Shown here piece after piece: positions 5,229 to 62,968 of a stretch of DNA of 64,000 bases (position 1 is the first letter of the stretch; each line of letters starts with the position of its first letter). Origin of the DNA: an uncultured Candidatus Saccharibacteria bacterium. GTDB lineage: Bacteria > Patescibacteriota > Minisyncoccia > Phycocordibacterales > Zambryskibacteraceae. The notes under the pieces were generated by a model. The model did not search any database, was not told where the DNA came from, and saw only the letters and a list, made by a program, of their open reading frames with translations. The stretch is from NCBI GenBank assembly GCA_964582295.1, contig CAZOQP010000001.1:148754-212753 (forward strand). Direction: 5' to 3'. A program made the position numbers and the translations under genes.

Positions 5229-5230
5229 AG

Positions 5231-5302: not shown

Positions 5303-5312
5303 GGATTGAATG

Positions 5313-5613: not shown

Positions 5614-5671
5614 TTAGAAGATCTACCATTGAGCCCCGCCTGAATGACTTCAGTCGGGCAGGTATGAGGGC
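5614..5671 (-). repeat. partial duplicate of tRNA-Lys 5' end (positions 1-22) interrupted by a 28-nt hairpin insert
   Basis: GCCCTCATA + [28 nt] + GCTCAATGGTAGA matches tRNA-Lys 5' half, then diverges into GIY-YIG start codon. Confidence 0.6.
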
Positions 5672-5714
5672 GTGCGCTCCAGCTTATAGCTTGAAGCGTA
5701 AAGCTTCAAGGTGT

Positions 5715-6119: not shown

Positions 6120-6140
6120 TGGTGTATTCTAACATGCACT

Positions 6141-6638: not shown

Positions 6639-7204
6639 TCCTTTTTATTATCTTCCGTGATATCTGAAAAACGGTCTCGGGCGAATCGCATACCCACGAT
6701 GTTCACCGCCACAAAAAGAAGAGCGAATACTATGAAGCCGATCTTTATATCTGCCACATGATTTTCAAGTATGGAGAGTGAGCCGACGCTTCGTGCAAGA
6801 AGGAACACAATGATCGCCCACAAGCATGAGCCGAGGAGACTGGCGGCTGCCGCTTTAGGCCAAGGCATTTTGAACATTCCTGCGGCGAGCTGGCTTACCA
6901 TGCCGGTGCCATGAATGAACTTGGACCAAAAAATTATCTTGAATTCGTGCCGTTTGATAGCCCGACCTATTTTATGTAAACGCTCAGGGTCTTTACTTAC
7001 AATCCATAGTTTCTCTACACGTTTTTCTCCCAAGAATCGGGCGGTGAAGAACCAGATAGCATCTGTAATAACGATACCCAGTGTTGATGCGGAAAATATC
7101 CACGGAAGTGATGCTTGTCCGTGGACGCCCAGGTACATTATCGGGATAAGCGCTCCGCTTCCCATAAAACAAATAGTTGCGATGATGATTAGGGGTGAGA
7201 GCAT
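6635..7204 (-). CDS. DedA/SNARE-associated family membrane protein
   Basis: Hydrophobic profile and conserved DedA-like motifs. Confidence 0.6.
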   Translation of the reverse strand: MLSPLIIIATICFMGSGALIPIMYLGVHGQASLPWIFSASTLGIVITDAIWFFTARFLGEKRVEKLWIVSKDPERLHKIGRAIKRHEFKIIFWSKFIHGTGMVSQLAAGMFKMPWPKAAAASLLGSCLWAIIVFLLARSVGSLSILENHVADIKIGFIVFALLFVAVNIVGMRFARDRFSDITEDNKKD

Positions 7205-7229
7205 ATGTTTATAAGCTCATTTTATCCCA

Positions 7230-8168: not shown

Positions 8169-8194
8169 TTTTGGGGTCTTTAAATTGGCCTACG

Positions 8195-9442
8195 TTAGCC
8201 ATTCTTGAGGATATTTTGCAATTCTTCACGCGCTACCTCTTCATCGCTCCAGGGGATCTTTTTGCCGTTCGCACCCATGATATAAGGATCGGTGCCCTTG
8301 CCTGTAATAAGAACAATCGTGTTCTTATTACAGGCAAGGGCATGTCGAAGGGCTTGCGCGATAGCTTCACGGCGATCCATTATTATTCGCGGCTCCTTTT
8401 TCATATCACTCGTCATGTCACGCAGGATTTTTTCCGGCTCTTCATCATATGGGTCTTCGTTGGTGAGAATTATCTCGTCGCAATATTCATCGGCGATCTT
8501 TCCCATGACCGGACGCTTCCATGTGTCGCGCCCTCCGCCTGTATTTCCGAGAACGCATATCAATTTCCTTTTAGAAATTGACTCCGACATATTCGGAGGA
8601 GTAAATGCTTTATAAAGCGCTTCAAGCGAACCGGGTGTATGAGCGTAGTCCACCACTACATCAAATTTCTGTTCATCCGATATTTTTACGAATTTCACTC
8701 GGCCAGGGATTGACGTAAGTGATGAAATACCTTTTGTGATAATTTCCCCGGAAATTCCCTGGCTTTTTGCGAATGCTTCAGCAAGCCCTGCATTTATTTT
8801 CATAAAATCTCCTGGTATCGGGGGATTTAGATGGGTATCGGCAAGGTGGAAGGCAATCTTATTTTCCGCCTCGTACTGAAGGAACTTTTCTCCGTGTTCG
8901 TTGTCACAATTTGAAATGATCGTTCGCGGCCTCTTGGATGAACGTGCTAAAAGCTTTGGCAACTCAAGCTTCGCTTCAAGGTATTTTTCAAATGAACCAT
9001 GGGATTCTATGTGCTCCGGCTCAAGCCCTGTGAATATAACGGCATTAAGCTCTAAAAAACGGTGACGTGATTGCTTGATACCTTCGGATGTCATCTCCAT
9101 TACCACCCAGTCGCATTTTGCTTCCACTGCATCTCCTAGGAACTTCTGGACGAAAAATCGGCCTGGCACGGACATTTTGAAAAGATTGGGTCGAGATTCG
9201 CTCCCTATTTTGAAACGGATGGTATTTAGGACTGCTGTTTTAAGACCTGCCGCTTCCAAAACAGCATTTACGAATTCGGTGGTTGAGCTTTTGCCTTTTG
9301 TGCCCGTTATGGCAAGCACTTTTATATTGCTAGAAGGAAAACCGAAGGCAATCGCAGAAAGAAAAGCCCAAAGGAAGTGATATAACGGTCGGAAAATATC
9401 CGCTATTTGCTTGGGAATGATTTTTTTCGCGAGTTGTAGCAT
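8195..9442 (-). CDS. murE: UDP-N-acetylmuramoyl-tripeptide synthetase (Mur ligase, MurE-like)
   Basis: Mur ligase P-loop ITGTKGKSSTT, DYAHTP, C-terminal Mur ligase domain. Confidence 0.75.
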   Translation of the reverse strand: MLQLAKKIIPKQIADIFRPLYHFLWAFLSAIAFGFPSSNIKVLAITGTKGKSSTTEFVNAVLEAAGLKTAVLNTIRFKIGSESRPNLFKMSVPGRFFVQKFLGDAVEAKCDWVVMEMTSEGIKQSRHRFLELNAVIFTGLEPEHIESHGSFEKYLEAKLELPKLLARSSKRPRTIISNCDNEHGEKFLQYEAENKIAFHLADTHLNPPIPGDFMKINAGLAEAFAKSQGISGEIITKGISSLTSIPGRVKFVKISDEQKFDVVVDYAHTPGSLEALYKAFTPPNMSESISKRKLICVLGNTGGGRDTWKRPVMGKIADEYCDEIILTNEDPYDEEPEKILRDMTSDMKKEPRIIMDRREAIAQALRHALACNKNTIVLITGKGTDPYIMGANGKKIPWSDEEVAREELQNILKNG

Positions 9443-9445
9443 TTC

Positions 9446-10015
9446 CTATTTCTTATTGAGATTCTTAAGAGCCGATTTTATTTTTTCGTTCGTTCCTGAA
9501 ATATTTTTGGGCAGATCGCGCACTGCTTCGCGGGCTTCTCTTTGTGAATACCCAAGAGAGACGAGAGCTTCCACTACATCCGTTTCCGCATCGGCGGAAG
9601 ATTCGTCGCGTGAAGAGGCGAGCATTTTACCCTTCAGTTCAAGCACTATTTTTTCCGAGATCTTTTTTCCCACACCAGCCACTTTGGTGAGGTAAGAGGC
9701 ATTTTGCTCGACCACCGCTTTTTCTATTTGGGTTGGTGAAGCAGTGTTCAGTACGGAAAGAGCGGTTTTAGGGCCAATGCCGGAAACTGTCAGAAGAAGC
9801 TCAAAGAGCCCGCGCTCGGAGGAATTGGTGAATCCATATAGATCCAGGGCGTTTTCCCTCACTGCCAGGTAGGTAAAAAGTCTGACCCCTTTTCCATCGT
9901 GTAGCGTTTCCAGAACAGAAAGGGGAATGGATACGCGATAGCCAACCCCGCCCACAAGAATAGTGGCCTGGCCGCCCCGTTTTTCTATCACCTTTCCTTC
10001 GAGAAAACCTATCAT
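9446..10015 (-). CDS. ruvA: Holliday junction branch-migration protein RuvA
   Basis: MIGFLEGKV...GVGYRV N-term, HhH motifs LLTVSGIGPKTAL. Confidence 0.85.
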   Translation of the reverse strand: MIGFLEGKVIEKRGGQATILVGGVGYRVSIPLSVLETLHDGKGVRLFTYLAVRENALDLYGFTNSSERGLFELLLTVSGIGPKTALSVLNTASPTQIEKAVVEQNASYLTKVAGVGKKISEKIVLELKGKMLASSRDESSADAETDVVEALVSLGYSQREAREAVRDLPKNISGTNEKIKSALKNLNKK

Positions 10016-10071
10016 GCGATTATGATAGCAGTCAGCTTGCTTTTTTGCCCGTTCAGGGTAAAGTGTCGCTT

Positions 10072-10338
10072 ATGCCAATAACTACATCAGCCAAAAAAGC
10101 CCTTCGCGTTTCGGCGCGTAAAAAGCTCGTGAACGACCGCCGAAGCGACGCTTTGAAGAATGCTGCCAAAAAATTGAAGAAGCTTGTGGCTGAAAAGAAA
10201 GCGAAAGAAGCAAAAGCTTTTTTCCCTACAGTCCAAAAAGCCATTGATAAGGCAGCTAAAAAGGGGATCATTAAGCCAAACGCCGCTTCCCGCACTAAAT
10301 CACGTCTTTCCGCTCTTGTTAAAAAAGCTGGAAGCTAA
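10072..10338 (+). CDS. rpsT: 30S ribosomal protein S20
   Basis: MPITTSAKKALRVSARKK...; lysine/alanine-rich S20 profile. Confidence 0.8.
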   Translation: MPITTSAKKALRVSARKKLVNDRRSDALKNAAKKLKKLVAEKKAKEAKAFFPTVQKAIDKAAKKGIIKPNAASRTKSRLSALVKKAGS

Positions 10339-10364
10339 AAGCGAAAAGCTGTAAGCTTGAGCCA

Positions 10365-10436
10365 CTCCTCGTCGTTCAATGGATAGGACATAAGATTGCG
10401 GATCTTAAAATTGAGGTTCGATTCCTCACGGGGGGA
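10365..10436 (+). tRNA. tRNA-Arg (anticodon GCG?), unusual C1-G72 acceptor with two G-U pairs
   Basis: D-arm TCGTCGTTCAATGGATAGGAC nearly identical to tRNA-Arg(CCG); anticodon stem-loop TAAGA-TTGCGGA-TCTTA; T-arm TGAGG-TTCGATT-CCTCA. Confidence 0.5.
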
Positions 10437-10446
10437 CAAGTAATTT

Positions 10447-10905
10447 CTAAAATCCTACGTGCTCCATCAGCTTTTCAAAAAAGGATTCCTCTATTTCCTC
10501 TTCAGGTAAAACCTCGGCCAAAGATTTCCTTATCGCATCTGGGTGGGCACTTTCTATGTGAATTACGAGAAGCGGCATGAAAAGTTTTTTGGTGCGTATG
10601 AAAAGCCGTCCTTCGTGCTCATTTACGAAAAATGAGCGAAGAGTTTCAAATGGATAAATAAGTGTATCCACCATAATGCCTTTTTCCAAAATACGAACGG
10701 TTATTTCCTTTGGGATCCGGGCGGCGTATAAAAGAAGGGAAGCACCGCCGACCACTATAAGCACTGCGAACATGTAATTGCCGAGTATTACGGCCGCCAC
10801 AGCTATTGCAAAAGAGACAATGGCAACGGATATAAACCAATCAGTACCCCTTTCTCGGAAGGGATATTCAAGCGTCTGCCACTCCAAAAAAGAGCCTTTC
10901 TTCAT
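10447..10905 (-). CDS. hypothetical membrane protein
   Basis: Two N-terminal TM helices, soluble C-domain; ATG at 10905 (listed ORF begins GTG 10908). Confidence 0.45.
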   Translation of the reverse strand: MKKGSFLEWQTLEYPFRERGTDWFISVAIVSFAIAVAAVILGNYMFAVLIVVGGASLLLYAARIPKEITVRILEKGIMVDTLIYPFETLRSFFVNEHEGRLFIRTKKLFMPLLVIHIESAHPDAIRKSLAEVLPEEEIEESFFEKLMEHVGF

Positions 10906-10948
10906 CACTTTTAGTGTAACACGCCCGAGTTTTTGCTAATATGCGGTT

Positions 10949-11182
10949 ATGATCACTACCGGCTCATTTGAAGCATTTATCGCCGCGCACCCGCTGGTGT
11001 TCGTAGCTATTCTGGTGTGGTCCCTTGCATGGAAGGCGCTTGCCTTATGGAAAGCGGCACGCATAGGCCACAAAACCTGGTTTACCGCTCTTCTTATTGT
11101 GAACCTTTTAGGTGTTCCTGAAATTATCTATCTTTTATTCGTGGCGCGTAAATTCAAAGTAGAAAGCAGCGAGGCATCATAA
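10949..11182 (+). CDS. small membrane protein (two TM helices)
   Basis: 77-aa ORF, WKALALWKAA motif, ATG start. Confidence 0.45.
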   Translation: MITTGSFEAFIAAHPLVFVAILVWSLAWKALALWKAARIGHKTWFTALLIVNLLGVPEIIYLLFVARKFKVESSEAS

Positions 11183-11225
11183 GTTATTTTGAGAAAAGTG
11201 TAAGAAGTGTTAGTTTGATTGTCAC

Positions 11226-11312
<87 letters not shown>

Positions 11313-11320
11313 CAAAAATT

Positions 11321-11355
11321 AACAGCCTAATCTAAATAAAAAAGATTAGGCTGTT
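11321..11355. terminator. bidirectional terminator hairpin
   Basis: aacagcctaatct-aaataaaaa-agattaggctgtt between tRNA-Ser (+) and convergent CDS (-). Confidence 0.55.
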
Positions 11356-11360
11356 ATTGA

Positions 11361-11921
11361 TTACATTGTCGCAAGGGCAGGCAGATGGCACACTTCTCGC
11401 AACCGATCTACCACGCGCGTGACGTCACCATTGTGATGAACCTCTCTGCAGAGACCCTTCACATAGATGATATCAGGGCGTCCTGGGACGTAAGGCATTG
11501 TGTCCAAGTAGGACACAACCCTGATCAAAACGGGAATGTTCTGTTGACTGAAGAAATTTTCCCATTGAATCAAGGTGTCGAGATCTTTGCTTACCACCAG
11601 AGCGCCTGTGGCTTCGCTCACCAAACGCACCAGAAGCCCATCAATGATTCCTGGTAAATCTCCGAGGACGACTTGATGAGGATCGTCGGCAAACTCTTTC
11701 AACCGAACATCGATGAGAGGATCTTTCCAGTTTCCGGCCGGGCGCTTTTTTCTTTCCGACCACGGCTTGACTCCCAGAATGCAGGGCAGTGTGTCGGAGA
11801 AAGTATCGATCTCATAAATACCGATCCTTTCTCCTGATGTCTCGAGCTGCCTGAATATTGAGGCAGCGAGGGTGGACTTACCACAGTTGGTAGTACCACC
11901 CACGACGATGCGGTGTGACAT
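11361..11921 (-). CDS. P-loop NTPase (kinase-like), function unknown
   Basis: Walker A GGTTNCGKSTLA at N-terminus; no further confident family assignment. Confidence 0.4.
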   Translation of the reverse strand: MSHRIVVGGTTNCGKSTLAASIFRQLETSGERIGIYEIDTFSDTLPCILGVKPWSERKKRPAGNWKDPLIDVRLKEFADDPHQVVLGDLPGIIDGLLVRLVSEATGALVVSKDLDTLIQWENFFSQQNIPVLIRVVSYLDTMPYVPGRPDIIYVKGLCREVHHNGDVTRVVDRLREVCHLPALATM

Positions 11922-12018
11922 TGTGTGTCTCCATGTAAAATTGCAGTCCTATGCATATTAAATCTCATATTATTTCGAAAGACCAGTGGATTAGTCTCTG
12001 TATGGTATAGTCTGGCCA

Positions 12019-12606
12019 ATGTCAATTAAAAAACACTTAAAAATCGGGCTGGATTTCGATGGTGTCATATCGGACTGCGGAAAATTAAAGTCCGATGCAG
12101 CAAGAAAACTTTATGGGTTAGATATTCCAGCGGATAAGTTCAAAAAAGAAATTGTAATCGGAGAGGGCCATTTGACCGCTGATGAATATCGCAGTCTCCA
12201 GAAAATAATATATGGTACACGGGAAGTCGGGTTTCTTATGGAACCTGTGGCGGGGGCGCTTCACTTCGTCTCTCAACTACTTGATTTGGGTCATGCTATT
12301 ACTATTGTTACCTCGCGGGAAGAAACTGAGCTTGAAATTGCAAAAGAATGGAGTGTTGCACAAGGTCTTTCCCTTAATTTTATCGGAGTAGGGTATGGGG
12401 TGAGTAAAGCTAATGCATGTACTGGTCTTGATATTTATATTGATGATGATCTAGATAAACTAGAACCGCTCATTGATATAGTGCCCCATCGGTTTCTATT
12501 TTCGTGGGGTTATAACAGTCACATAGATACAGGGACCGTTGCTAGACGTATAGGATCATGGGAAGAATTTTTTCGCACCGTTACATCGATAAAGAATATT
12601 CCCTAA
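12019..12606 (+). CDS. HAD-superfamily 5'(3')-deoxyribonucleotidase-like hydrolase
   Basis: DFDGV motif 1, T/S motif 2, IDDD motif 4. Confidence 0.55.
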   Translation: MSIKKHLKIGLDFDGVISDCGKLKSDAARKLYGLDIPADKFKKEIVIGEGHLTADEYRSLQKIIYGTREVGFLMEPVAGALHFVSQLLDLGHAITIVTSREETELEIAKEWSVAQGLSLNFIGVGYGVSKANACTGLDIYIDDDLDKLEPLIDIVPHRFLFSWGYNSHIDTGTVARRIGSWEEFFRTVTSIKNIP

Positions 12607-12622
12607 GATAGGGTTTTTAAAA

Positions 12623-12850
12623 GTGGAAACATTATTACGGTGTATAATTATTTGTATGCATGAAGGTTTTAGACAGCCGCAAGAGTCTCCTGATGAATCA
12701 AATATTGAAGATGCCGCTGAACGTGCTGCCCAATTTGTATACGATGAAAGAGAGGAGGATTACATTCCTCTTAATGAAGTTTTGAAAAAGGTCAAAGGTG
12801 AAGAAGATCCGCCGGCCGGAGGAGAAAAGGGTTTGGAGAAAGCTGCATAA
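12623..12850 (+). CDS. small acidic hypothetical protein
   Basis: 75-aa ORF between HAD gene and ruvX; no motifs. Confidence 0.25.
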   Translation: METLLRCIIICMHEGFRQPQESPDESNIEDAAERAAQFVYDEREEDYIPLNEVLKKVKGEEDPPAGGEKGLEKAA

Positions 12851-12854
12851 GAAT

Positions 12855-13298
12855 ATGAGGCTCCTTGGTATTGATTTCGGATTAAGGCGTATTGGCATCG
12901 CCATTTCGGATGAAGAAGGGCGCATAGCTTTTCCGCGTTCTGTAATCGCAAATACTACCAATGCCGGCCAGCAGATAGCTGACGTGGTTCGTGAGGAAGG
13001 GGTTGGAAAGGTAGTGTGCGGGCTTTCGACCGATTCAAGCGGGGAAGACAATCCTGTCATGGAAAAAGCCAGGATTTTTACAGAGGAATTGGCGAGAATG
13101 ATATCCGTGCCAATAGTTTTCCAAGGCGAATCTTTTTCCACCTCTCATGCCGCTCAAGAAAAGATGTCGGCTCTTTCTGAAGATGGCAGAGTTTTGTCGC
13201 CTGAAAAGAAAGCTCTCGCAGAAGAAGACATTGACGCTTCGGCTGCAGCGCTTATTCTTCAGAGATATATAGAGCAAAACAGCCATGGCAACAATTGA
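12855..13298 (+). CDS. ruvX: Holliday junction resolvase-like / pre-16S rRNA nuclease RuvX (YqgF)
   Basis: MRLLGIDFGLRRIGIAISD RNase H-like motif. Confidence 0.75.
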   Translation: MRLLGIDFGLRRIGIAISDEEGRIAFPRSVIANTTNAGQQIADVVREEGVGKVVCGLSTDSSGEDNPVMEKARIFTEELARMISVPIVFQGESFSTSHAAQEKMSALSEDGRVLSPEKKALAEEDIDASAAALILQRYIEQNSHGNN

Positions 13299-13611
13299 GG
13301 ACTTTTCAAAAATAGAGATGAAGATAGGAAAGATCCTCTCTGTTGAGGATATTGAAGGCAGCGAAAAACTTCTGAAACTTTCTGTTTCATTCGGCGAAGA
13401 AAATTCCCGGCAAGTTCTTTCAGGAATTAAAAAATACTTTCCTGATTCGCAAACTTTGGTAGGGAAAAAATGCGTTTTTGTCACAAATTTAGAGCCGCGG
13501 CAGATGATGGGGCTTGAAAGCCAAGCTATGTTACTTGCCGCAAGTACCGACGAGACAATCGCACTTTTTGAAGTAACAGAAAATATCCCTGAAGGAACCA
13601 AGATTCGTTAA
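13285..13611 (+). CDS. tRNA-binding domain protein (CsaA/Trbp111/MetRS C-terminal-like)
   Basis: IEDFSKIEMKIGKILSVE...GKKCVFVTNLEPRQMMG pattern of OB-fold tRNA-binding domain. Confidence 0.65.
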   Translation: MATIEDFSKIEMKIGKILSVEDIEGSEKLLKLSVSFGEENSRQVLSGIKKYFPDSQTLVGKKCVFVTNLEPRQMMGLESQAMLLAASTDETIALFEVTENIPEGTKIR

Positions 13612-13616
13612 TTTTT

Positions 13617-13691
13617 TGGTGCTCCCACCAGGAATCGAACCTAGAACTGCTCCTTAGAAGGGAGCCGTTATATCCATTTAACTATGGGAGC
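13617..13691 (-). tRNA. tRNA-Arg (anticodon TCT), CCA encoded
   Basis: GCTCCCATAGTTAAATGGATA...; anticodon loop CTTCTAA; T-arm CTAGG-TTCGATT-CCTGG. Confidence 0.75.
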
Positions 13692-13702
13692 ATTTTCAAA
13701 TA

Positions 13703-14017
13703 TTACCCCAGATTTGCAGTTTTACCCCAACCCTTCAGAGTTTTATAGGTTTTTCTTCTATGACAATTCGCACACCTTACATCGCACTTCGCTATCTCTC
13801 TTTTTACAGATTCCCATGAATAATGCCCAGACAGTAACCTAGAGACTGATTTGAATTTTATTTTTGGATTTTTGTGATCGAAGTCTAAAACAACAGGATC
13901 TTTTTCTCCACAATCAATACAAGATTTTTTTATCAAAAAACCTAACACGGCGGTGCGTACTTTTACGCGGTGCCTCTTTTGTGCTTCGTATAATTTTTCT
14001 CTTTCTTTATAGGGCAT
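13703..14017 (-). CDS. HNH endonuclease
   Basis: CIDCG...DHKNP...CANCH HNH zinc-finger signature. Confidence 0.7.
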   Translation of the reverse strand: MPYKEREKLYEAQKRHRVKVRTAVLGFLIKKSCIDCGEKDPVVLDFDHKNPKIKFKSVSRLLSGHYSWESVKREIAKCDVRCANCHRRKTYKTLKGWGKTANLG

Positions 14018-14069
14018 GTAGGGATTATATCACGCAGTTCTAACCCCATCTTTTCATATACAATTAATT

Positions 14070-14151
14070 GTGGGCATGGAGAGATTTGAACTCTCAACCC
14101 TTGCGGGATACGCTTCTGAGGCGTACGCGTATACCAATTCCGCCACATGCC
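14070..14151 (-). tRNA. tRNA-Leu (anticodon CAG)
   Basis: GGGCATGTGGCGGAATTGGTATACGC...; anticodon loop CTCAGAA; long variable arm; T-arm GAGAG-TTCAAAT-CTCTC. Confidence 0.7.
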
Positions 14152-14620
14152 CGGCACCCTACAAGAATACAACAATCTTACCTCGTTCAATTGTGCTGGG
14201 TATTATACTCCACTTGAACTTTTTGACACTATCACAAACAACTATGAAGTGATAGCTAGATGGAACGCTGAAATTAAGGATTTCTTAGCTAAAGAGCGTG
14301 TAAAACCAGCTTTTGAGGTTATTTTATAAGTGGTATAGTTAAGTTAAGAGATTATAGGGAGATTATAGGTTTATTAGCTTTAAGATAAGCAAATGAACCA
14401 AAAAGATAACCTGACAGATGTAGTAGAGGTGCTTCCTGCTTCTAGCTCCTCCGACACACCTATTGCTCCACAGGCATCAAAGCCGAACGACCAAGTTGTT
14501 GTAGATTCAGGAGGAAATCCAGTAACTTTGGGCAATAAACTAGGCGACAATAGGCGATTCTAGTAATAAGGGTAATTTAGTTGAACTTATTACTGGGTTA
14601 AGTGTCTAAACACTTGAACT

Positions 14621-14986
14621 ATGTCTGCATCTACAGGAAACACTTATGCCAAAGGAAATAAGGGTGGTGGAAGGAAGTCCGCCTACACAGAGAAGGCAGA
14701 TGCTCAATTCTGCTTGGATTTGTGGAATGGAAGAATCCGAAAACAGAAACTCCAAAAGAAGATAGCTTTAGGAAAACAGGGAGCTAAAGACCTATTTGCT
14801 TTAAAGATTTTGGACGGAAACGAGAGATTACTAAGTAAGCTCTTTGATAAGTTATACCCGACCATCTACTCTGATGATGAAAAAGAAGGTCTAGAGATTA
14901 AAGGAGCAAGAGAGTTAGCAGATATGTTGCAAAAAATTCTAGAGGAAGGAGATGGGATAGTAGAAGAAGTTAGTAAATTGCCTTAA
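14621..14986 (+). CDS. hypothetical protein (island cargo)
   Basis: 121-aa ORF with ATG start inside AT-rich island. Confidence 0.4.
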   Translation: MSASTGNTYAKGNKGGGRKSAYTEKADAQFCLDLWNGRIRKQKLQKKIALGKQGAKDLFALKILDGNERLLSKLFDKLYPTIYSDDEKEGLEIKGARELADMLQKILEEGDGIVEEVSKLP

Positions 14987-15936
14987 GAGGAACTAAAATT
15001 GGCTTCCGGAAACGCCTTGTGTCTTACAGCAAATCTAACAGGAAAACCCTTGTCTCTTTTGTCTATGGGAATTTCAAGAATCATTAGGTCGTCAGGTAGT
15101 TTAAGCCCAGCTAGAATAACTATTGTTTCTTCACAAAAACCAGTCATATTATGCCAGCAAACATTAAGAATTTCCTCAATCGTAAGCCCGTGAATTTTGG
15201 GGTAATTAACCCCGACCTTATTCCCAGCTATCGGAGAATAAACAATCTTAGGAAGTTTCCAGCCGTGATGAATTATTTGAACCCTTAACTCTCTAAACAC
15301 CCTATACCAATTTTTCTGATGACCCTCAATATATTTAAAGAATTGAGCTTTACGGGGGTCGCTATCAGGAATTGGAAATTCTGCCACAGCTTGTTTCCGC
15401 TTCTTTTCTTTATCGGAGAACAATCCAGATATAGGGTAGCCCATATAAGCGCAGTGCCTAAACAGGGCATCAGAAGCCATCACGCCTCTTATAAAGAAAT
15501 CTTTAAAGAAAAGATTTAGGTCGTCTGTGATGGGAGCATCAACAGTTATTTGACGGTTTGTAATGTAAGCACCCTTGCCATTTGCTACATCTTGGTTATG
15601 TTGCGATATTGCTTCTAAACAACGCTCTCTTGCGATTTTTGCCTCGTATAAATTTTCAAAGATGGTTGAATAGAAGTGGTCATAGGTTAATCTCTCCTCC
15701 CTTGGGGAGATACAATCCCTGATTTGACACATCTGAAAAATGAAACGACCAAAGAAATCATCCCCCTCCTTAATGTCATAGGATTTTGTTAGAACACCTC
15801 TTATGTTCCTATTTGCCTCATCTTTGGATAGACAACACTTTTTATATTTTCTATTACTACCGCAAGGGCATTTATGGTTTCTACCAACAGCATTCATTGT
15901 GCTGATAGTGTATGGTAGAACCCGACTATTTGGCAA
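14983..15936 (-). CDS. SEC-C motif domain protein (island cargo)
   Basis: N-terminal HKCPCGSNRKYKKCC SEC-C metal-binding motif; alternative ATG at 15897. Confidence 0.5.
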   Translation of the reverse strand: MPNSRVLPYTISTMNAVGRNHKCPCGSNRKYKKCCLSKDEANRNIRGVLTKSYDIKEGDDFFGRFIFQMCQIRDCISPREERLTYDHFYSTIFENLYEAKIARERCLEAISQHNQDVANGKGAYITNRQITVDAPITDDLNLFFKDFFIRGVMASDALFRHCAYMGYPISGLFSDKEKKRKQAVAEFPIPDSDPRKAQFFKYIEGHQKNWYRVFRELRVQIIHHGWKLPKIVYSPIAGNKVGVNYPKIHGLTIEEILNVCWHNMTGFCEETIVILAGLKLPDDLMILEIPIDKRDKGFPVRFAVRHKAFPEANFSSS

Positions 15937-15938
15937 TT

Positions 15939-16148
15939 TTACCTAAGCAACTCCCAAGCTTCTACCCCCAAAGCCCCTGCTATATCCTCTAGTTTTGAGA
16001 CAGTTATGTTTCTTTCTGCCCTTTCTAACATACCTATAAAATTACGGCTTAACTTAGCTCTTTCAGCTAGAGTTTCTTGGGACAGATTACGCCTTAGGCG
16101 TTCCTCCTTCAATCTATGACTAAACTTTTTAACTATTTTATGAGACAT
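15939..16148 (-). CDS. XRE-family helix-turn-helix transcriptional regulator
   Basis: LRRNLSQETLAERAKLSRNFIGMLERAERNITVSKLEDIA HTH_XRE pattern; listed ORF extends to TTG at 16178. Confidence 0.65.
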   Translation of the reverse strand: MSHKIVKKFSHRLKEERLRRNLSQETLAERAKLSRNFIGMLERAERNITVSKLEDIAGALGVEAWELLR

Positions 16149-16239
16149 ACCTACACTAATAGCGTAGGCGTTTGACAACTATAGTTCTACCCACTATAGT
16201 TGGTATGTTAAACACATCCTTTTTAACTAGTAAATCCCT

Positions 16240-16857
16240 ATGGCAGACCTATTTCTTGTTTTATTTTTTCTCTCCCTTTTGGGATTAGTTGTTGGAATGA
16301 TTAATCCCTCTGTTTTTACCCGCATTACCAAGAAAGAACTTACAAGGAAAAGAATTGGACTAACTTCTTTCGGGGCAATGTTCGTTTTCCTCGTTCTCGT
16401 AGGCATAACTCATAACACTAATACCCAAGCCCCAACGCCAGCACAAAGTGCATCTACTCCGGTAGCAACACAAGTGTTTGATATTCCTAACTTAATTGGA
16501 AAAAATCTGGAAGAAATTAGGGCTATTTTTGGCACACCAAGCTATGATGGCGAACCAACCGCAACTCGTGTTCAATTTAGCGACGATAGAACTTGGGACA
16601 AAACTTGGAGCAAAGAAGGATACTCATTAACAGCCACATACAACATAGACAATGGGAAAGTAACTGAGCTTTTTCTTGGGTCAGATAGTGATGCTTCTTT
16701 GGTTGTCTTTAGAAATAAGGAAAATATTCTGAAAGTAGGCAATCTTTCTGAAAATGACAACAAATACTCTCTGGAATTCGTAAAACTTAAAGCCATTTTA
16801 GGCAATCCAAACAAACCTCCTGAAGGTTATACAGGGGTTATTGTAAGAGCAAGATAG
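16240..16857 (+). CDS. membrane-anchored hypothetical protein (island cargo)
   Basis: Two N-terminal TM helices then Thr/Pro-rich linker and soluble domain. Confidence 0.45.
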   Translation: MADLFLVLFFLSLLGLVVGMINPSVFTRITKKELTRKRIGLTSFGAMFVFLVLVGITHNTNTQAPTPAQSASTPVATQVFDIPNLIGKNLEEIRAIFGTPSYDGEPTATRVQFSDDRTWDKTWSKEGYSLTATYNIDNGKVTELFLGSDSDASLVVFRNKENILKVGNLSENDNKYSLEFVKLKAILGNPNKPPEGYTGVIVRAR

Positions 16858-16911
16858 GGCTTCTAAATAAGCAGGGCTGATTTAGTGTAGAATCCAAGTT
16901 AAACTGGACTT

Positions 16912-18555
16912 ATGTCAGGTAGCATAAGAACAGCAGAAGACCTCCAAGAAGCCCTAAAATCGCTTTCAGAGAGCGTAGAGGACTACAATCCTCAAGAGTA
17001 TAGATATATTCTCTATGCCCGTAAATCTACAGACGAAGCCACTAAGCAAGTCCAATCCCTTCCAGACCAACTAAGAGAGTGCAAAGAATACGCCGAGAGA
17101 AATAACTTAAAGATAGGAAAGATATTTCAAGAAGCCGAATCTGCTAAAGAGGCGGGAATAAGACCAATATTTAGAGAAATGATAGGACTTCTTGAAGCAG
17201 GAAAGTATGATGCAATTTTGGCTTGGCATCCAGATAGATTAGCTAGGAATATGCGAGATGCAGGAGAAATTATTGATTTGGTTGATAAGAGAACTATCAA
17301 AGACCTTAAATTTGTTAGCTTTGATTTTAATAATTCCGCATCAGGGAAAATGCACTTGGGAATTACCTTTGTTTTGTCCAAGCATTATTCAGACCATTTG
17401 AGCGAGAGTGTCAGTAGAGGCAACCGCAATAGAGTTGCCGAAGGGAAATATATCAATAAGCCCAAACACGGTTACATAAAAGACCCGAACCAGTATTTGA
17501 TACCTGACATCCATAACGATAACTTCATACTCATTAAAAACGCTTTTAAATTGAGATTAGAAGGTAAAACTCTTGAAGAAATTGCTGACTATCTAAGTGA
17601 AAATAACTACAGCATTACGAGAAAAAATAAGATAAAAGGGCTAGTAAGAAGTGCTTACAGAATGACCAAGCAGAGAGTGAGTAATTTTATGAAAGACCCT
17701 GTTTATACAGGCATATTGCAGTATGGAAAAAGCGGAGTGGTCAATCTGATTGAGCTTTATGGATTCCAACCAATGTTAAACGTGGAGGAGTTTATGAAGA
17801 TAAATAAGTTGGTTCATAATAAGGAGCTAATTAAGCTGGCTAGGAGCTTCCGCAAGGGAGAAGGCGTCATAGCAAACCTGATGAGAGAAATGGTTATTTG
17901 TGCAGATTGTGGCGAGACAATGACCCCTAATATTCCAAGAAACAGATATAACGATAGATATTTTTACTTCCGTTGTGATAATAGCGATTGCATTAGGAAG
18001 GGTAAATCTATAAGGGCAAAGGTAATTACCAGTTATATTTATGATTATCTTAATACCCAACCTTTTTCCTCTCCTGCTTCTTACGCTCATTATAAAGACG
18101 AGATGCGAAGGGTGTCAGAACAACGCCTAATAGAAGCCAAAAGAAATTTACGCTCCCTACAAACCCAAAAACTAAAGCTGGAGGAGAAAGTTGAAACGAT
18201 AAAGAATATGCTCGCTGGGAATGAAAGGGATGATATTAAGAATCTTTACAGAGAAGATTTGAAGCCGACCCAAGCAGAATTGAGGCAGATTGAGGAGAAA
18301 GTAGACAAAGTAAAGACCTATATAGAGGCAGGAAAGGACAGTATCTTAACTTATGAGGAATTTATTGAACTTATGGAAAATATGCCTAAGGTTATGAAGA
18401 AAATGAGAAATATGAATGAGCTGGACTATATTATCAGAAAAATCTTCTTGAACTTTACTGTAGCTCCTAAAAAGGTAATGAAATCAACGCTAAATACACC
18501 TTTTGATGCCTTAGAAGTCCAAAAAGTATCACTTGGTGCGCGGGAGAGGACTTGA
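16912..18555 (+). CDS. large serine recombinase (resolvase/invertase N-domain + recombinase domain + zinc ribbon)
   Basis: YARKSTDEATKQVQSLPDQ (catalytic Ser region), LAWHPDRLARN, zinc ribbon CADCGETM...FYFRCDNSDC, coiled-coil C-terminus; stop lies inside tRNA-Leu(GAG). Confidence 0.8.
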   Translation: MSGSIRTAEDLQEALKSLSESVEDYNPQEYRYILYARKSTDEATKQVQSLPDQLRECKEYAERNNLKIGKIFQEAESAKEAGIRPIFREMIGLLEAGKYDAILAWHPDRLARNMRDAGEIIDLVDKRTIKDLKFVSFDFNNSASGKMHLGITFVLSKHYSDHLSESVSRGNRNRVAEGKYINKPKHGYIKDPNQYLIPDIHNDNFILIKNAFKLRLEGKTLEEIADYLSENNYSITRKNKIKGLVRSAYRMTKQRVSNFMKDPVYTGILQYGKSGVVNLIELYGFQPMLNVEEFMKINKLVHNKELIKLARSFRKGEGVIANLMREMVICADCGETMTPNIPRNRYNDRYFYFRCDNSDCIRKGKSIRAKVITSYIYDYLNTQPFSSPASYAHYKDEMRRVSEQRLIEAKRNLRSLQTQKLKLEEKVETIKNMLAGNERDDIKNLYREDLKPTQAELRQIEEKVDKVKTYIEAGKDSILTYEEFIELMENMPKVMKKMRNMNELDYIIRKIFLNFTVAPKKVMKSTLNTPFDALEVQKVSLGARERT

Positions 18556-18618
18556 ACCTCCACGCCTTGCGGCATAAGAACCTCAATCTTACGTGTATAC
18601 CAATTTCACCACCCGCGC
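18534..18618 (-). tRNA. tRNA-Leu (anticodon GAG), CCA encoded
   Basis: GCGCGGGTGGTGAAATTGGTATACACG...; anticodon loop TTGAGGT; long variable arm; T-arm GGAGG-TTCAAGT-CCTCT. Confidence 0.75.
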
Positions 18619-18663
18619 GTCGCGTCATTATGCTCAATTACCGGCTCTTTTTCAAACAGGAGA

Positions 18664-19083
18664 TTATTCTTTTGCTACAGCTGCTTCTTCCGCAACTTCA
18701 GGAGCTTCGGGCACCACCTCCTCTTTGATTATTCTCACATTTCTCATCTGACGGCGGACTTCCTTAGCTGCCTTTTCACGAATGTGATAAAGCTTGGCGC
18801 GGCGTACTTTTGCACGCTTCACTATCTCTATCTTGTCTATCATGGGCGAGTAAAGAGGAAATATTTTTTCCACTCCCACGCCGGAGGCCACCTTTCTCAC
18901 AGTGAAGGTTCCGCCCGGAGTACTTCCATGTTTTACAGCGAGGATAAGACCTTCAAATGCCTGAAGGCGGATCTTTCCCTTTTCTTTGATCTTCTGCCAC
19001 ACACGCACGCTGTCGCCGCCTCTTAATCCGAGGCTGATGCGCTCATCCATGGGCGCCGAAGAGACTACGTACGTTGTTTTCAT
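18664..19083 (-). CDS. rplS: 50S ribosomal protein L19
   Basis: L19 family pattern (…FEGLILAVKHGS…RKVASGVGVEKIFPLYSP…). Confidence 0.8.
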   Translation of the reverse strand: MKTTYVVSSAPMDERISLGLRGGDSVRVWQKIKEKGKIRLQAFEGLILAVKHGSTPGGTFTVRKVASGVGVEKIFPLYSPMIDKIEIVKRAKVRRAKLYHIREKAAKEVRRQMRNVRIIKEEVVPEAPEVAEEAAVAKE

Positions 19084-19091
19084 AATGGGCG

Positions 19092-19850
19092 CTACTCTAA
19101 CACATTTGGGAGACTTTCTGCAATGCTTTGCCTGAAAGAGGTAAGAGCTGTTTCAAAATCATCAGGGTATGGCGCGATGACGCTTTTTTCCTTGCCGTCT
19201 CGGCCCGGCCAGGTGAGCTTATAGGCATGAAGAGCGGGGCGGTTCAATCCGAAAAGGCAGGGTTTACCTGATGCATAAAGGGAGTCACATACTATCGGAT
19301 GATGAACAGCTTTCAGGTGCACGCGTATCTGGTGTGTGCGGCCGGTGATAGGGAAGACATGCAGGAATGAAGCGTCGCTCCCTTTTTCACGCACTACGAA
19401 TTGAGTGGTGGCCTCGCGAAGCTCGCCGCGCGCGCCGCGCTGGGCGGAGAACTGGCGGAAATCACTAGAACTTCTTCCGATAGGGCGTTTTATGACGCCG
19501 CGTTCGTCTTTTACTGGTCCGTATACCAAAGCGTGGTATTCCTTGTGTATCTTCCTGTTCTGAAAAGCTCTTTTGAAGTATGTGTGGGAGCCCTTTGTCT
19601 TGCATAAAAGAAGAACACCCGAAGTTTCTTTATCCAGGCGGTGAACGATGCCAGGACGGAATATGGCCGTGCCATTTTTAAGCACCTCTTCTTCGCCCAC
19701 ATCTTTCATTTGCGGATAATGCTTAAGCGCCCAATCGGCGAGTGTCTCTTCCTTATGAACACCATCCGCATGCACCAGGATTCCCGCCGGCTTGTTCACT
19801 ACTACCACGTCATCATCTTCATAAAGAACGGTTATTTTTTCTTTTTTCAT
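19092..19850 (-). CDS. RluA-family pseudouridine synthase
   Basis: HRLDKETSGVLLL catalytic Asp motif; ATGA overlap with uppS stop. Confidence 0.75.
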   Translation of the reverse strand: MKKEKITVLYEDDDVVVVNKPAGILVHADGVHKEETLADWALKHYPQMKDVGEEEVLKNGTAIFRPGIVHRLDKETSGVLLLCKTKGSHTYFKRAFQNRKIHKEYHALVYGPVKDERGVIKRPIGRSSSDFRQFSAQRGARGELREATTQFVVREKGSDASFLHVFPITGRTHQIRVHLKAVHHPIVCDSLYASGKPCLFGLNRPALHAYKLTWPGRDGKEKSVIAPYPDDFETALTSFRQSIAESLPNVLE

Positions 19851-20524
19851 TTTCCGTTCCGCTTTTCGCGCTTAGCGTAATTTTCTAGCATTAAAAAGAA
19901 TTCTTCTTTTGAGAAATCCGGCCATAGTGTATCGGAGAACATAAGCTCGCTGTATGATGATTGCCATAAAAGAAAATTGGAGAGACGCATTTCTCCTCCG
20001 GTTCGGATAACAAGCTCTGGATCGGGGATGGAGGCGGTATCAAGAAAAGATGAGAATTTTTCTTCTGTGAGAGTCGCTACATCTTTAGTGGGGATATTTT
20101 TAATAGCCCTTATTATTTCGTCCCGACCTCCGTATGAAAGTGCGATAGTAAGCTTTATTTTTTCTTCGTCCGGTGCGGTACTCTTAGTTTTTTCAATTAA
20201 TTTTTGGATGTCTTCCTGAAAATCTGAAGGGTTCCCAATGAAATGCACCGAAACACCTTTCTTTTTTATTTCGCCCACCCTTTCTGTAAGTGCCCAGGTG
20301 AAAATCTTCAAGAGGCCACCCACTTCCTCTTCGGTGCGCTTCCAATTCTCGGTGGAGAAAGCATAGGCGATTACATTTTTCACTCCCTTCTCAATAGCCC
20401 AATCCACCACCTCTTCAAGTTTTTTATATCCGGCTTCGTGTCCTGTAAAAGTAGTCAGTCCGTGCTTTTTAGCGAAACGGCGGTTGCCGTCCATGATGAT
20501 GCCTAGAGTTTGGGGAATTGACAT
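19847..20524 (-). CDS. uppS: undecaprenyl diphosphate synthase (cis-prenyltransferase)
   Basis: IIMDGNRRFAKK, AFSTENWKR, RTGGEMRLSNFLLWQ. Confidence 0.85.
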   Translation of the reverse strand: MSIPQTLGIIMDGNRRFAKKHGLTTFTGHEAGYKKLEEVVDWAIEKGVKNVIAYAFSTENWKRTEEEVGGLLKIFTWALTERVGEIKKKGVSVHFIGNPSDFQEDIQKLIEKTKSTAPDEEKIKLTIALSYGGRDEIIRAIKNIPTKDVATLTEEKFSSFLDTASIPDPELVIRTGGEMRLSNFLLWQSSYSELMFSDTLWPDFSKEEFFLMLENYAKREKRNGK

Positions 20525-20530
20525 ATTTAG

Positions 20531-20603
20531 TGCGCGCTGAGGGACTTGAACCCCCGACCTTCCCGGTGTAAACGGGTTGCTCTACCAACTGAGCTAAGCG
20601 CGC
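20531..20603 (-). tRNA. tRNA-Val (anticodon TAC)
   Basis: GCGCGCTTAGCTCAGTTGGTAGAGC...; anticodon loop TTTACAC; T-arm GGGGG-TTCAAGT-CCCTC. Confidence 0.75.
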
Positions 20604-20686
20604 GTACAGAGTATCGAAATATACGTTAGCAGAAAAGTGTGTCCTTGTCGCTTATTAACTTTGTACATATACCTCATTGAATTAGG

Positions 20687-21325
20687 ATGTTCACAGTAGT
20701 CCTTTTCAATGGAGGTTATGTGCGTAACGCGATCATATTGCCGGCAGCCCCTGCTGGTGCATCCGATCTCGCCGCTTTGCTTGTGGTAGTGGCGTACCGC
20801 TTCAGTTTTTATCTCGACGAGGAAGCTTGTAGAGATAGATCAGATTTTGAGATAGATTTCACAAGGCGGGTAGAGGATTTTCTATCCACCTTACAAGTGG
20901 CACCAAAAGATTCTACCCAGATGGAGTTCCATGGATTTTCGGAAGAAGGTGTTCGGAATCAGTATGGTGCCTTATGCCGGAATTGTCCGACATGGAGCCG
21001 TAGTGCAAAACCTCGGCCGAGACGCGACCGGGGAGAGGTGCTCTCATTTGACGACATCGATGAGCTGACGTACGCCTTCGCCTGCATCATTGCTCACACT
21101 GGATACCGTAATGCAATGCGGTATCAGGAAACCCTTTCAGTGCTTCGGCGGAATGTGGTCGTCTGGTATCTGACGAATCTCGGGTATCGTTTACCCATAG
21201 GTCCTTGGCCTCATGAAGATTGGACGGCCCACCGATGCTGGCCCTGGCTTGCAGGGTTTGATGGGGCCCGGAGCGACGAAGTGGGGGCTGTTCTTTCCCA
21301 TCGTGTTCGTCGCATGAGTGCGTGA
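20687..21325 (+). CDS. hypothetical protein, markedly GC-rich
   Basis: 212-aa ORF with ATG start, Arg/Trp-rich, GC content far above local background. Confidence 0.4.
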   Translation: MFTVVLFNGGYVRNAIILPAAPAGASDLAALLVVVAYRFSFYLDEEACRDRSDFEIDFTRRVEDFLSTLQVAPKDSTQMEFHGFSEEGVRNQYGALCRNCPTWSRSAKPRPRRDRGEVLSFDDIDELTYAFACIIAHTGYRNAMRYQETLSVLRRNVVVWYLTNLGYRLPIGPWPHEDWTAHRCWPWLAGFDGARSDEVGAVLSHRVRRMSA

Positions 21326-21347
21326 GGTTTGTGAAAAGTGTGCAGTG

Positions 21348-21914
21348 TTACTTGCGGTTCCGACGTTTCGTCGGAACCGCTTTCTTTTTTGCAGGTGTTG
21401 TAAGTACGAAGCGGTAAGGTTTTTTTGCCCACACAGGCCCCGCGTAATTTACTCCGATGCGGGGAGTGGCCGAGATGTTTCGTGGCGAAACATCTCGGCC
21501 CCGATCTTCAAACCACAATCCCGTTCTCTTGTTTGCAGGTGCACCGTTCAGGATTTTATCAATTGAAAATGCACGGGTGAGGCGCCCCGGCCCGCTCCAT
21601 TTTTCGGTGCCCCGTATCAAAACCGCGGCGGGGTAATCTTTCTCTCCCGTCACCACATTCAGCATCCAGTGCATGCCGTACACGAAATAAACATATAAAG
21701 TACCTCCTTCGCAAAACATTACTTCCGTACGCTTTGTCCTGCCTTTGGCGGCATGGCAGGCGAGGTCATGCGGCCCTACATAAGCTTCAGCTTCTGTGAT
21801 CTTGTCCGCGATAATTTCTCCGTTCACTTTTCTCACTAGGTGCATCCCGATGAGATCTTTCGCCACTTTCACAGCGGGGCGGTTGAAAAAATCGGGGCCT
21901 AAAACTTTTCTCAT
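21348..21914 (-). CDS. DNA-3-methyladenine glycosylase (Mpg/AAG family)
   Basis: FFNRPAVKVAKDLIGMHLVRK, AEAYVGPHDLACHA, ATPRIGVNYAG...PYRF; listed 295-aa ORF extends upstream through tRNA-His and is probably spurious beyond M108. Confidence 0.7.
   Translation of the reverse strand: MRKVLGPDFFNRPAVKVAKDLIGMHLVRKVNGEIIADKITEAEAYVGPHDLACHAAKGRTKRTEVMFCEGGTLYVYFVYGMHWMLNVVTGEKDYPAAVLIRGTEKWSGPGRLTRAFSIDKILNGAPANKRTGLWFEDRGRDVSPRNISATPRIGVNYAGPVWAKKPYRFVLTTPAKKKAVPTKRRNRK
21354..21390. terminator. terminator hairpin gcggttccgacg-ttt-cgtcggaaccgc plus T-run
   Basis: 12-bp perfect stem followed by tttcttttttg; lies over the 3' end of the minus-strand mpg ORF. Confidence 0.6.
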
Positions 21915-21962
21915 TTTGTTAGGATACCCGAAGAGTGGTATAAATGGGAACGAACGTCTTAT

Positions 21963-22035
21963 GGTGCCTATGGTGTAAAGGTTAACACTGAAGTTTGTGG
22001 AACTTCCAATCTGGGTTCGATTCCCAGTAGGCACC
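21963..22035 (+). tRNA. tRNA-His (anticodon GTG) with encoded G-1
   Basis: G-1 + GTGCCTA acceptor pairing with discriminator C; anticodon loop TTGTGGA; T-arm CTGGG-TTCGATT-CCCAG. Confidence 0.75.
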
Positions 22036-22139
22036 CAAAAATAAGGAAACGATCCGGCGACTATATTTTTGGAGTGTCCTGAGCTTGCCGAAGGGCACCC
22101 ATTAATAAAAGTTTTTTTAGTGTGCGGTATAATTAAGGT

Positions 22140-60843: not shown

Positions 60844-60847
60844 TATT

Positions 60848-62934: not shown

Positions 62935-62968
62935 AAACTTAAAAAATATAAAAATCTTACAAAACACA

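Follow-up and report, generated by a model that had tools for sequence, protein, structure and literature searches.

A probable large serine recombinase element at the 3′ end of tRNA-Leu(GAG) in a Patescibacteria genome, with a recombinase gene that integration would split

We analyzed a 64,000-nt stretch of contig CAZOQP010000001.1 (the window), in which a block of AT-rich DNA lies between tRNA-Leu(CAG) and tRNA-Leu(GAG). An earlier reading of this sequence (the original prediction) had listed these two tRNA genes and tRNA-Arg(TCT), all found on the minus strand by ARAGORN, together with open reading frames (ORFs) for a 121-aa hypothetical protein, a SEC-C protein, an XRE regulator, a membrane protein and a 547-aa recombinase, all of which are present (Table 1). 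It took the block for a mobile element that had been integrated at tRNA-Leu(GAG) by the recombinase, a large serine recombinase (LSR). This central proposal is supported by an empty site in the related contig L003, by boundaries of the element's own and by a circular relative. We consider it very likely that positions 14193-18539 are a 4.3-kb integrative element, inserted by its LSR at the extreme 3′ end of tRNA-Leu(GAG) in a Patescibacteria genome of Parcubacteria type. Relatives of its L19 gene place the genome in this lineage (Parcubacteria/Paceibacteria-like). Contigs and loci used for comparison are numbered with the prefix L (L001 and so on) and homologous proteins with the prefix P.

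An AT-rich element between two tRNA-Leu genes

The element spans 4,347 bp when both copies of its core are included, and all of its ORFs are intact. The drop in GC content between tRNA-Leu(CAG) and tRNA-Leu(GAG) described in the original prediction is real, with 38.2% GC in the element compared to 46.7% in the remainder of the window. None of 252 same-size windows outside the element was as low (mean 46.9%, standard deviation 1.2, minimum 42.7), which places the element ~7 standard deviations under the genome level.

An empty site, which was to be looked for in related genomes as adjacent tRNA-Leu genes, was found in L003, the closest relative (L19 80% identical). The order there is L19, tRNA-Leu(GAG), a 5-nt spacer that reads AGTGT after C74, tRNA-Leu(CAG), 104 nt and tRNA-Arg(TCT), with neither the 4.3-kb block nor the HNH endonuclease gene of the window. 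The order of L19 followed by tRNA-Leu(GAG) is kept in nearly all relatives scanned. At the left boundary of the window element, the spacer 14153-14192 is A/T-rich after A73-C74, as in the trailers of other host tRNAs. CCA is encoded by only 2 of the 9 tRNA genes in the window (5230-22036), most of the others ending in A73-C74 followed by an A/T-rich trailer. For tRNA-Leu(GAG), C75-A76 of the encoded CCA are supplied by the P arm of the element, which might change the 3′-end processing of this tRNA.

An independent copy of the element in L083 carries an LSR 78% identical to that of the window and has a different flanking context. It is alignable to the window only over 14189-14335, 14522-16216 and 16921-18538, and homology therefore ends at the two cores (14189 and 18538); the spacer 14153-14192 is not common to this copy, whose homology begins at 14189. 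At 5800-6252 of L083 no recognizable tRNA follows the LSR, and a GC-rich stretch lies beyond the core; possible explanations are a target other than a tRNA, a degenerate site resembling attP, or chimerism of the contig.

The recombinase and the separated end of its gene

The recombinase is a member of the LSRs by domain content, fold and the logic of its attachment (att) sites. Pfam identified the Resolvase (PF00239, E = 3.7e-26), Recombinase (PF07508) and Zn_ribbon_recom (PF13408) domains, and PHROGs assigned the protein to phrog_95 integrase (E = 9e-66), while a search of the PDB matched it to the TP901-1 N-terminal domain. Catalytic residues R37, S39, R109 and R112 are invariant and D108 is nearly so (40 homologs), and the four zinc-ribbon cysteines are invariant. 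The AlphaFold model of a homolog, P0055, contains a catalytic domain, a long helix, a recombinase domain and a zinc ribbon, followed by a coiled coil (two long helices, 379-464) and a small C-terminal subdomain, and it gave full-length Foldseek matches to cryo-electron microscopy structures of serine integrases (E about 1e-18). Several features that define an LSR are found here: the catalytic domain, a recombinase domain with zinc ribbon and coiled coil, a short core, and the 5-bp motif shift described below.

The recombinase ORF ends in ...GGT GCG CGG GAG AGG ACT TGA. The original prediction had placed this end within tRNA-Leu(GAG), and indeed the last 22 nt of the ORF (18534-18555) are the antisense of the tRNA 3′ end, with the stop codon TGA in the T-loop. 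Codons through G542 come from the element, and ARERT and the stop (18538-18555) are read off the antisense tRNA. The overlap had been interpreted as the classic signature of integration into a tRNA gene. It differs from the signature of tyrosine integrases: attL and attR have only GTGC in common, and there is no duplicate of the tRNA 3′ end.

The missing part of the gene lies at the opposite end of the element. Positions 14160-14620 had been described as non-coding, and instead hold a conserved 40-codon module, which we call the tail (TPLELFDTITNNYEVIARWNAEIKDFLAKERVKPAFEVIL and a stop codon, 14207-14329), and a conserved 56-aa ORF (14393-14563). The short direct repeats reported for this stretch are present as a tandem repeat of 11-12 nt, which is not kept in L083, the closest copy of the element. 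Matches to a hidden Markov model (HMM) of the tail occur beside attL, on the same strand and 1.3-7 kb upstream of the LSR, in at least 20 loci. The tail is nearly always 40 codons long with a constant stop position, and among its copies third codon positions differ ~2x as often as first or second positions. There is no start codon for the tail inside the element in 18 of 20 copies, and in 9 of 20 there is none at all past the nearest in-frame stop. When the LSR up to its xGT codon was joined to the left-end sequence following the xGT codon, an uninterrupted ORF extended to the tail stop in 17 of 17 elements. These reconstructions show an LSR gene that spans attP, such that the circular form is predicted to encode a protein of about 586 aa ending in the 40-aa tail, followed by the small ORF.

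Fused LSR-tail ORFs exist, namely P0055 (577 aa, on L163), the fragments P0121 and P0124, and the upstream LSRs in L089-L092. A profile search with the LSR C-terminus plus the tail returned only 17 short proteins because the search was word-indexed; they include two clear fused fragments and, in addition, one with a variant tail. L163 is a Logan contig of 4,929 nt that carries the fused gene and no tRNA, and its first and last 30 nt are identical. Since an overlap of 30 nt is k-1, as between neighboring contigs of the assembler, L163 represents either a 4.9-kb circle or a tandem repeat. Together with the 17 in-frame reconstructions, the fused gene on L163 places an att site inside the integrase ORF, which is the defining property of a self-splitting integrase. 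The small ORF directly follows the tail in nearly all elements and in L163, its start abuts the tail stop in several elements, and it forms the largest accessory cluster (23 loci). In the P0055 model, a low-confidence linker encoded by the att core region leads into a single tail helix (542-568) with a predicted local distance difference test score (pLDDT) below 50, and the model is therefore silent on tail docking.

A tandem arrangement of two LSR elements was observed at tRNA-Ala(TGC) in L089-L092 (for example, L091 5617-11668). The upstream LSR is a different one (560 aa) and reads on in frame into the tail of the element downstream, implying that an attR already in place received a second integration. 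A further tRNA-Ala(TGC) lies inverted at 5419-5494 of L089.

Table 1. Features of the element and its flanks, in window coordinates
Feature	Position	Strand	Evidence and remarks
tRNA-Arg(TCT)	13617-13691	-	ARAGORN; host flank; beside tRNA-Leu(CAG) in L003 also
Free-standing HNH endonuclease gene, 104 aa	13703-14017	-	PHROGs; outside the element
tRNA-Leu(CAG)	14070-14152	-	ARAGORN; host flank; in L003 5 nt downstream of tRNA-Leu(GAG)
Host spacer, 40 nt, original tRNA-Leu(GAG) trailer and B arm of attL	14153-14192		Unlike L083
attL core GTGC	14193-14196		Sole sequence in register between attL and attR
P′ half-site with T-loop-like motif CTTGAAC at 14213-14219	14193-14238	+	Motif spacing; ~46 nt identical to L083
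Split-off recombinase 3′ end: 3 linker codons, 40-codon tail TPLELFDTITNNYEVIARWNAEIKDFLAKERVKPAFEVIL, stop	14197-14329	+	Tail HMM; frame
Tandem 11-12 nt repeat (A/G)GAGATTATAGG x2, repeat family D3	14347-14369	+	Between tail stop and small ORF
Small ORF, 56 aa, motif KDNLTD...VTLG, backbone gene	14393-14563	+	Recurrent in related elements
Second T-loop-like motif ACTTGAACT, just ahead of the 121-aa ORF start	14612-14620	+	Recurrent in relatives
Hypothetical protein, 121 aa	14621-14986	+	ORF; also in L083
SEC-C protein, 317 aa, N-terminal zinc-binding motif, cargo	14983-15936	-	PF02810, E = 1.2e-5
XRE-type helix-turn-helix regulator, 79 aa, first gene of operon with SEC-C protein	15939-16178	-	PF01381, E = 8e-13
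Promoter-like site TTGACA-17-TATAGT before membrane-protein and LSR genes	16172-16200	+	11/12 consensus positions; consensus match only
Membrane protein, 205 aa, cargo	16240-16857	+	ORF with hydrophobic N-terminal segments
LSR, integrated (truncated) form, 547 aa	16912-18555	+	Pfam, PHROGs
tRNA-Leu(GAG), intact, integration target	18534-18618	-	ARAGORN; acceptor and T arm form the B′ half-site
attR core GTGC, reverse complement of tRNA C74, A73, C72, G71	18536-18539		L083 homology ends at 18538

Attachment sites, related elements and cargo

The original prediction expected an att duplication of the tRNA-Leu(GAG) 3′ end and offered candidates in 14150-14620. We found no such duplication in the window, where no match to the tRNA end goes beyond 8-mers and only the 4-nt core is in register. 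Both candidate sequences are real, and neither has the proposed meaning: ccacttgaact at 14208 is an attP-type half-site motif and not a decayed tRNA copy, and acacttgaact at 14604 repeats this half-site motif, as a further copy that recurs among the elements. The second motif, C[TA][CT]GAACT, lies 10-60 nt past the small ORF in 13 of 21 elements compared to 8.5% of background windows, and it is also found ~60 nt into the contig in the circle L163. It could serve as an additional binding site for the recombinase, or as an operator ahead of the cargo genes.

Reconstruction of the two parental sites gave …CACTTG-GTGC-TGGGTATTATACTCCACTTGAAC… for attP and …GTTCAATT-GTGC-GCGGGAGAGGACTTGAAC… for attB, with longer predicted junctions of GAAGTCCAAAAAGTATCACTTG-GTGC-TGGGTATTATACTCCACTTGAACTTTTTGAC and CTTACCTCGTTCAATT-GTGC-GCGGGAGAGGACTTGAACCTCCACGCC, respectively. 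In at least 16 related attL/attR pairs the in-register core is GT[GC][CG], sometimes extended to 6-9 nt, so that cores measure 4-9 nt. The related cores are the reverse complement of tRNA positions 74-71, and GT is invariant. Because it is the sole invariant dinucleotide, GT is the probable point of crossover. A symmetry scan of the reconstructed attP and attB yielded weak peaks of 0.32-0.35 compared to a background of about 0.25. To the right of the left core, ~46 nt are identical between the window and L083, in a tail-region alignment that is 73% identical overall.

The position of the T-loop-like motif differs between the two types of site. Measured on right half-sites (P′ and B′), the distance from the core G to GAAC is +18 in 46 of the 48 tRNA half-sites, and all 23 of 23 attL/attP half-sites have it at +23. 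In the LI integrase and other LSRs, the motif for the zinc-ribbon domain is shifted 5 bp outward in attP relative to attB (PMC3783163). The spacings observed here match that rule, indicating that 14197-14212 is the element's own P′ arm. We infer that the zinc-ribbon domain reads the tRNA T-loop (CTYGAAC), which sits 5 bp nearer the core in the attB-type half-site than in the attP-type one; this would explain the presence of sister enzymes at ~20 different tRNAs.

The recombinase has more than 1,000 homologs. Among the best 120, which are 45-71% identical and about 545 aa long, each one named by source is from Parcubacteria or Patescibacteria. Nearly all of their C-termini read KVS-x-[G/C]-[A/G]-R..T and then stop, or are extended as RTRTP... 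or RTCDL...LYQLS, which are antisense translations of tRNA 3′ ends. A profile of the recombinase family retrieved 80 metagenomic loci, 60 of which have at least 60 nt past the LSR stop. An antisense tRNA overlaps the LSR 3′ end in 53 of these 60 loci, and about 20 different tRNAs are involved (Leu, Ala, Val, Gly, Lys, Pro, Asp, Glu, Gln, Ile and Arg, with several anticodons). Such an overlap goes far beyond chance. From tail to tRNA, related elements are 2.8-7 kb long, with a common layout of attL, tail, small ORF, variable cargo, LSR and attR. The LSR profile found no relatives in 2.9 million viral contigs, and the identity of the window recombinase to annotated LSRs of phages and plasmids does not exceed 26%. 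The window element very probably belongs to a family of LSR elements of 3-7 kb that is specific to Patescibacteria and whose recombinase gene is split by integration. The open-access papers and preprints that we searched hold no description of this recombinase family or design for bacteria, and an earlier description is possible. In one related locus, L107, partial perfect copies of the tRNA-Val 3′ end of 16, 13 and 18 nt occur at 3374, 4260 and 4417, upstream of the tail-adjacent attL, and two of the three are followed by similar sequence; these may be remnants of earlier insertions, possibly of another element type.

Within the cargo, the XRE regulator resembles the control proteins of restriction-modification systems (PADLOC, E = 2e-16). 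Searches of PDB, NCBIfam and PADLOC with the SEC-C protein found nothing beyond the SEC-C motif, and searches of Pfam, NCBIfam, PADLOC, PHROGs and PDB suggested no function for the 121-aa protein, the membrane protein or the small ORF. The window element has no PHROG match to virion, packaging or lysis genes and thus lacks what would identify a prophage. Among cargo proteins of more than 90 aa from 23 elements, replication, conjugation and virion families were not found, save for weak small-terminase-like helix-turn-helix matches. Sister elements carry a cyclic-oligonucleotide-based antiphage signaling system (CBASS) cyclase with a four-transmembrane (4TM) effector, a type IIG restriction-modification enzyme of ~1,000 aa, an AAA_15 ATPase, an Ltp-type lipoprotein, a staphylococcal-type nuclease, other nucleases, hydrolases and small helix-turn-helix proteins, with the assignment of cargo to locus (L159, L100, L163 and others) drawn from ORF sizes. 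The LSR mini-elements are in this way carriers of defense genes.

Outside the element, tRNA-Arg, the HNH gene and tRNA-Leu(CAG) are host flank. The HNH endonuclease gene that the original prediction had noted between tRNA-Arg(TCT) and tRNA-Leu(CAG) was recovered by PHROGs (phrog_2255 HNH endonuclease, E = 1.3e-24; phrog_3106, E = 9e-22), with no Pfam match at E ≤ 0.01. Its GC content of 35.4% is below that of the element. Homologs 61-69% identical occupy partly different positions (L004 2146-2397, L043 9367-9663 and L073 7599-7898): that of L004 (69% identical) lies between tRNA-Leu(GAG) and tRNA-Arg(TCT), and those of L043 and L073 lie elsewhere. As the gene is absent from L003 and present in these three loci, its gain and loss are independent of the element, and it looks like a separate selfish gene of the tRNA cluster. 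The window has a second low-GC stretch at 60000-64000 (35% at 61-63 kb) with several ORFs that have hydrophobic N-termini, in which neither a recombinase nor a tail module was found. The Logan contigs L001 and L002 end at 11287, 18545-18574 and 20597, which are inside tRNA-Ser, tRNA-Leu(GAG) and tRNA-Val. We considered the break at tRNA-Leu(GAG) as a sign of strain heterogeneity or an empty-site variant and rejected this idea, because breaks at tRNAs are generic in the sample; with the short-read assembly also broken in tRNA-Ser and tRNA-Val, the break provides no evidence for such a variant.

Alternative readings, a possible mechanism and known systems

In a classic tRNA island, crossover would occur in the T-loop and the element would bring a replacement 3′ end, leaving the displaced original to decay at 14186-14219. 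A gapped alignment of that segment to the tRNA 3′ end is possible, ACTTGAAC is present at both 14212 and 18550, and L107 has its perfect 13-18-nt copies of a tRNA-Val 3′ end upstream. In register, however, only about 11 of 21 positions agree between attL and the tRNA 3′ end, yet all ORFs are intact. The non-matching tRNA-like segment is 100% kept in the independent L083 and must therefore belong to the element, not to displaced host DNA. The motif offset is exactly 5 bp in 23 of 23 sites, and the tail-adjacent attL of L107 likewise has only GTGC in common. We rejected the T-loop-crossover model on the lack of any repeat beyond 8-mers, the conservation in L083 and the 5-bp motif offset, and we regard a classic island as very improbable. 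It is also unlikely, if less remote, that the tail is an independent small gene or a site acting at the DNA level, its frame having no consequence for a protein. The first ~30 nt of the tail do overlap the conserved P′ half-site, such that conservation of LELF could be at the DNA level, and AlphaFold confidence is low; but all 17 reconstructions are in frame with no stop between, start codons are missing as described (18/20 and 9/20 copies), the tail nearly always has 40 codons and the same stop position, and fused ORFs are actually in databases.

A decayed, immobile prophage or satellite remnant whose integrase stands beside a tRNA by chance would fit the small size, the lack of genes for transfer or replication and the regulator, whose XRE type is typical of the immunity regions of prophages. 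We think this highly unlikely: the ORFs are intact with catalytic residues conserved, the same compact architecture is found at 2.8-7 kb in more than 20 loci with differing cargo, and a circular copy exists. The empty search of 2.9 million viral contigs and the distance of known phage LSRs (at most 26% identity) also argue against a phage origin. We give almost no credence to an ancestral, non-mobile and fast-evolving spacer of the tRNA cluster that harbors a domesticated recombinase. Rearrangements of the tRNA cluster among relatives and the variable presence of the HNH gene would fit such a spacer, but the site is empty in L003, GC lies ~7 standard deviations below the genome, the same element occupies an unrelated context in L083 and sister elements sit at ~20 different tRNAs.

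Several points weigh against a mobile LSR element with a split recombinase gene. L003, which provides the empty site, is a different species (L19 80% identical), and its tRNA spacer is 5 nt, not 40 nt. Excision of this particular copy is a prediction, and the circular de Bruijn contig L163 may also come from a tandem repeat. At 7 of the 60 related loci, including the closest relative L083, no tRNA is recognizable at the junction. The 5-bp rule is seen on one half-site only, and the +18 spacing in attB is set by tRNA geometry anyway, while the dyad symmetry of attP and attB is weak, so that GT is no more than the probable crossover dinucleotide. Finally, the tail helix is modeled at a pLDDT below 50, and a function for the tail is pure inference.

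For an LSR element whose gene is split by integration, we suggest the following mechanism. An LSR dimer would read the tRNA acceptor and T arm as the B′ half-site, and strand exchange at GT would leave the mature tRNA host-derived up to position 72. In sequence terms, integration relocates both tail and small ORF to the far end of the element, after which the LSR ORF stops behind ARERT, five codons of antisense tRNA. From the circular form, the LSR would be expressed with its tail, and the small ORF could be co-translated; in the integrated form, the LSR would keep its catalytic, recombinase, zinc-ribbon and coiled-coil domains and lose the tail. Expression of the small ORF would then depend on the state of the DNA, and the tail, the small ORF or both could bias the reaction toward integration or excision. 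We tentatively raise the possibility, which we hold to be doubtful at present, that the two DNA-state-dependent forms of the recombinase (~586 aa with a tethered 40-aa helix, and 547 aa) are a built-in directionality control that replaces or gates a separate directionality factor, in what would be the first bacterial integrase, and the first of the serine recombinases, with an att site in its own gene, and a natural set of enzymes retargeted, by way of the universal T-loop that they read, to ~20 tRNAs.

Serine integrases are leading tools for genome engineering, and a T-loop-docking family with an apparently simple attP/attB rule and many target tRNAs would open specificity and directionality to direct tests. 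Few mobile elements have been described in Patescibacteria, whose genomes are tiny, and the cassettes of 3-7 kb, abundant and in related copies laden with defense genes, may be a main route of gene exchange among them. For annotation, the C-terminal residues of such a recombinase would be antisense tRNA sequence, with the tail and the small ORF left uncalled or miscalled.

The closest known enzymes are the large serine integrases of phages and integrative and conjugative elements (LI/A118, Bxb1, PhiC31, TP901-1, SPbeta SprA and the SCCmec Ccr proteins), which share with the window LSR the domain set, including a zinc ribbon with an inserted coiled coil, as well as a very short core and a zinc-ribbon motif that lies 5 bp farther out in attP. 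Identity to annotated phage and plasmid LSRs is low, as given above. In the literature, serine-integrase sites have short cores and lie within ORFs, and tRNA targeting is a habit of tyrosine integrases (PMC8092301). Unlike described LSRs, the window family targets the 3′ ends of tRNA genes, has its attP inside the LSR ORF and rides on 3-7 kb elements without phage or conjugation genes, and its named homologs are all from Patescibacteria. The tRNA islands and prophages of tyrosine integrases are alike in their insertion at the tRNA 3′ end, an integrase gene beside the tRNA and a tRNA left functional. Their common cores of 25-76 bp duplicate the 3′ part of the tRNA (PMC8092301), whereas the window family has a different type of enzyme and a core of 4 bp, with nothing duplicated. 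A tyrosine recombinase with a repeat of at least 15 bp of the tRNA 3′ end, which marks such islands, was not found here.

Integrases of the SSV type target tRNA genes. In these "suicidal" integrases (SSV1, pTN3 and pT26-2), which are tyrosine recombinases described as exclusive to archaea, the site is within the integrase gene and integration fragments the gene (PMC8371274). The split likely disables the SSV-type enzyme, whereas the window family would swap only a 40-aa C-terminal tail and keep its known LSR domains in one piece; the window family, which has no archaeal tyrosine recombinase, is alike in gene splitting and not a member. A further parallel is the integration-dependent immunity of mycobacteriophages (PMC8092301). 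In a study by Broussard et al. (2013), attP was reportedly found inside the repressor gene, with integration altering the C-terminus and coupling the form of the protein to the integration state. In that case it is the repressor gene that spans attP, a tyrosine recombinase acts as integrase and the part lost is a degradation tag, of which none is evident in the window LSR. The filamentous phage PhiRSM has as its integrase a small serine recombinase of the resolvase/invertase type, whose 13-bp site is located at the 3′ end of tRNA-Ser (PMC4471427); this enzyme has none of the recombinase, zinc-ribbon and coiled-coil domains, its attP is intergenic and it is borne by an inovirus. Compared to these systems, the LSR mini-elements would be a bacterial serine-recombinase counterpart of the self-splitting integrases, in a milder form in which only the tail is swapped.

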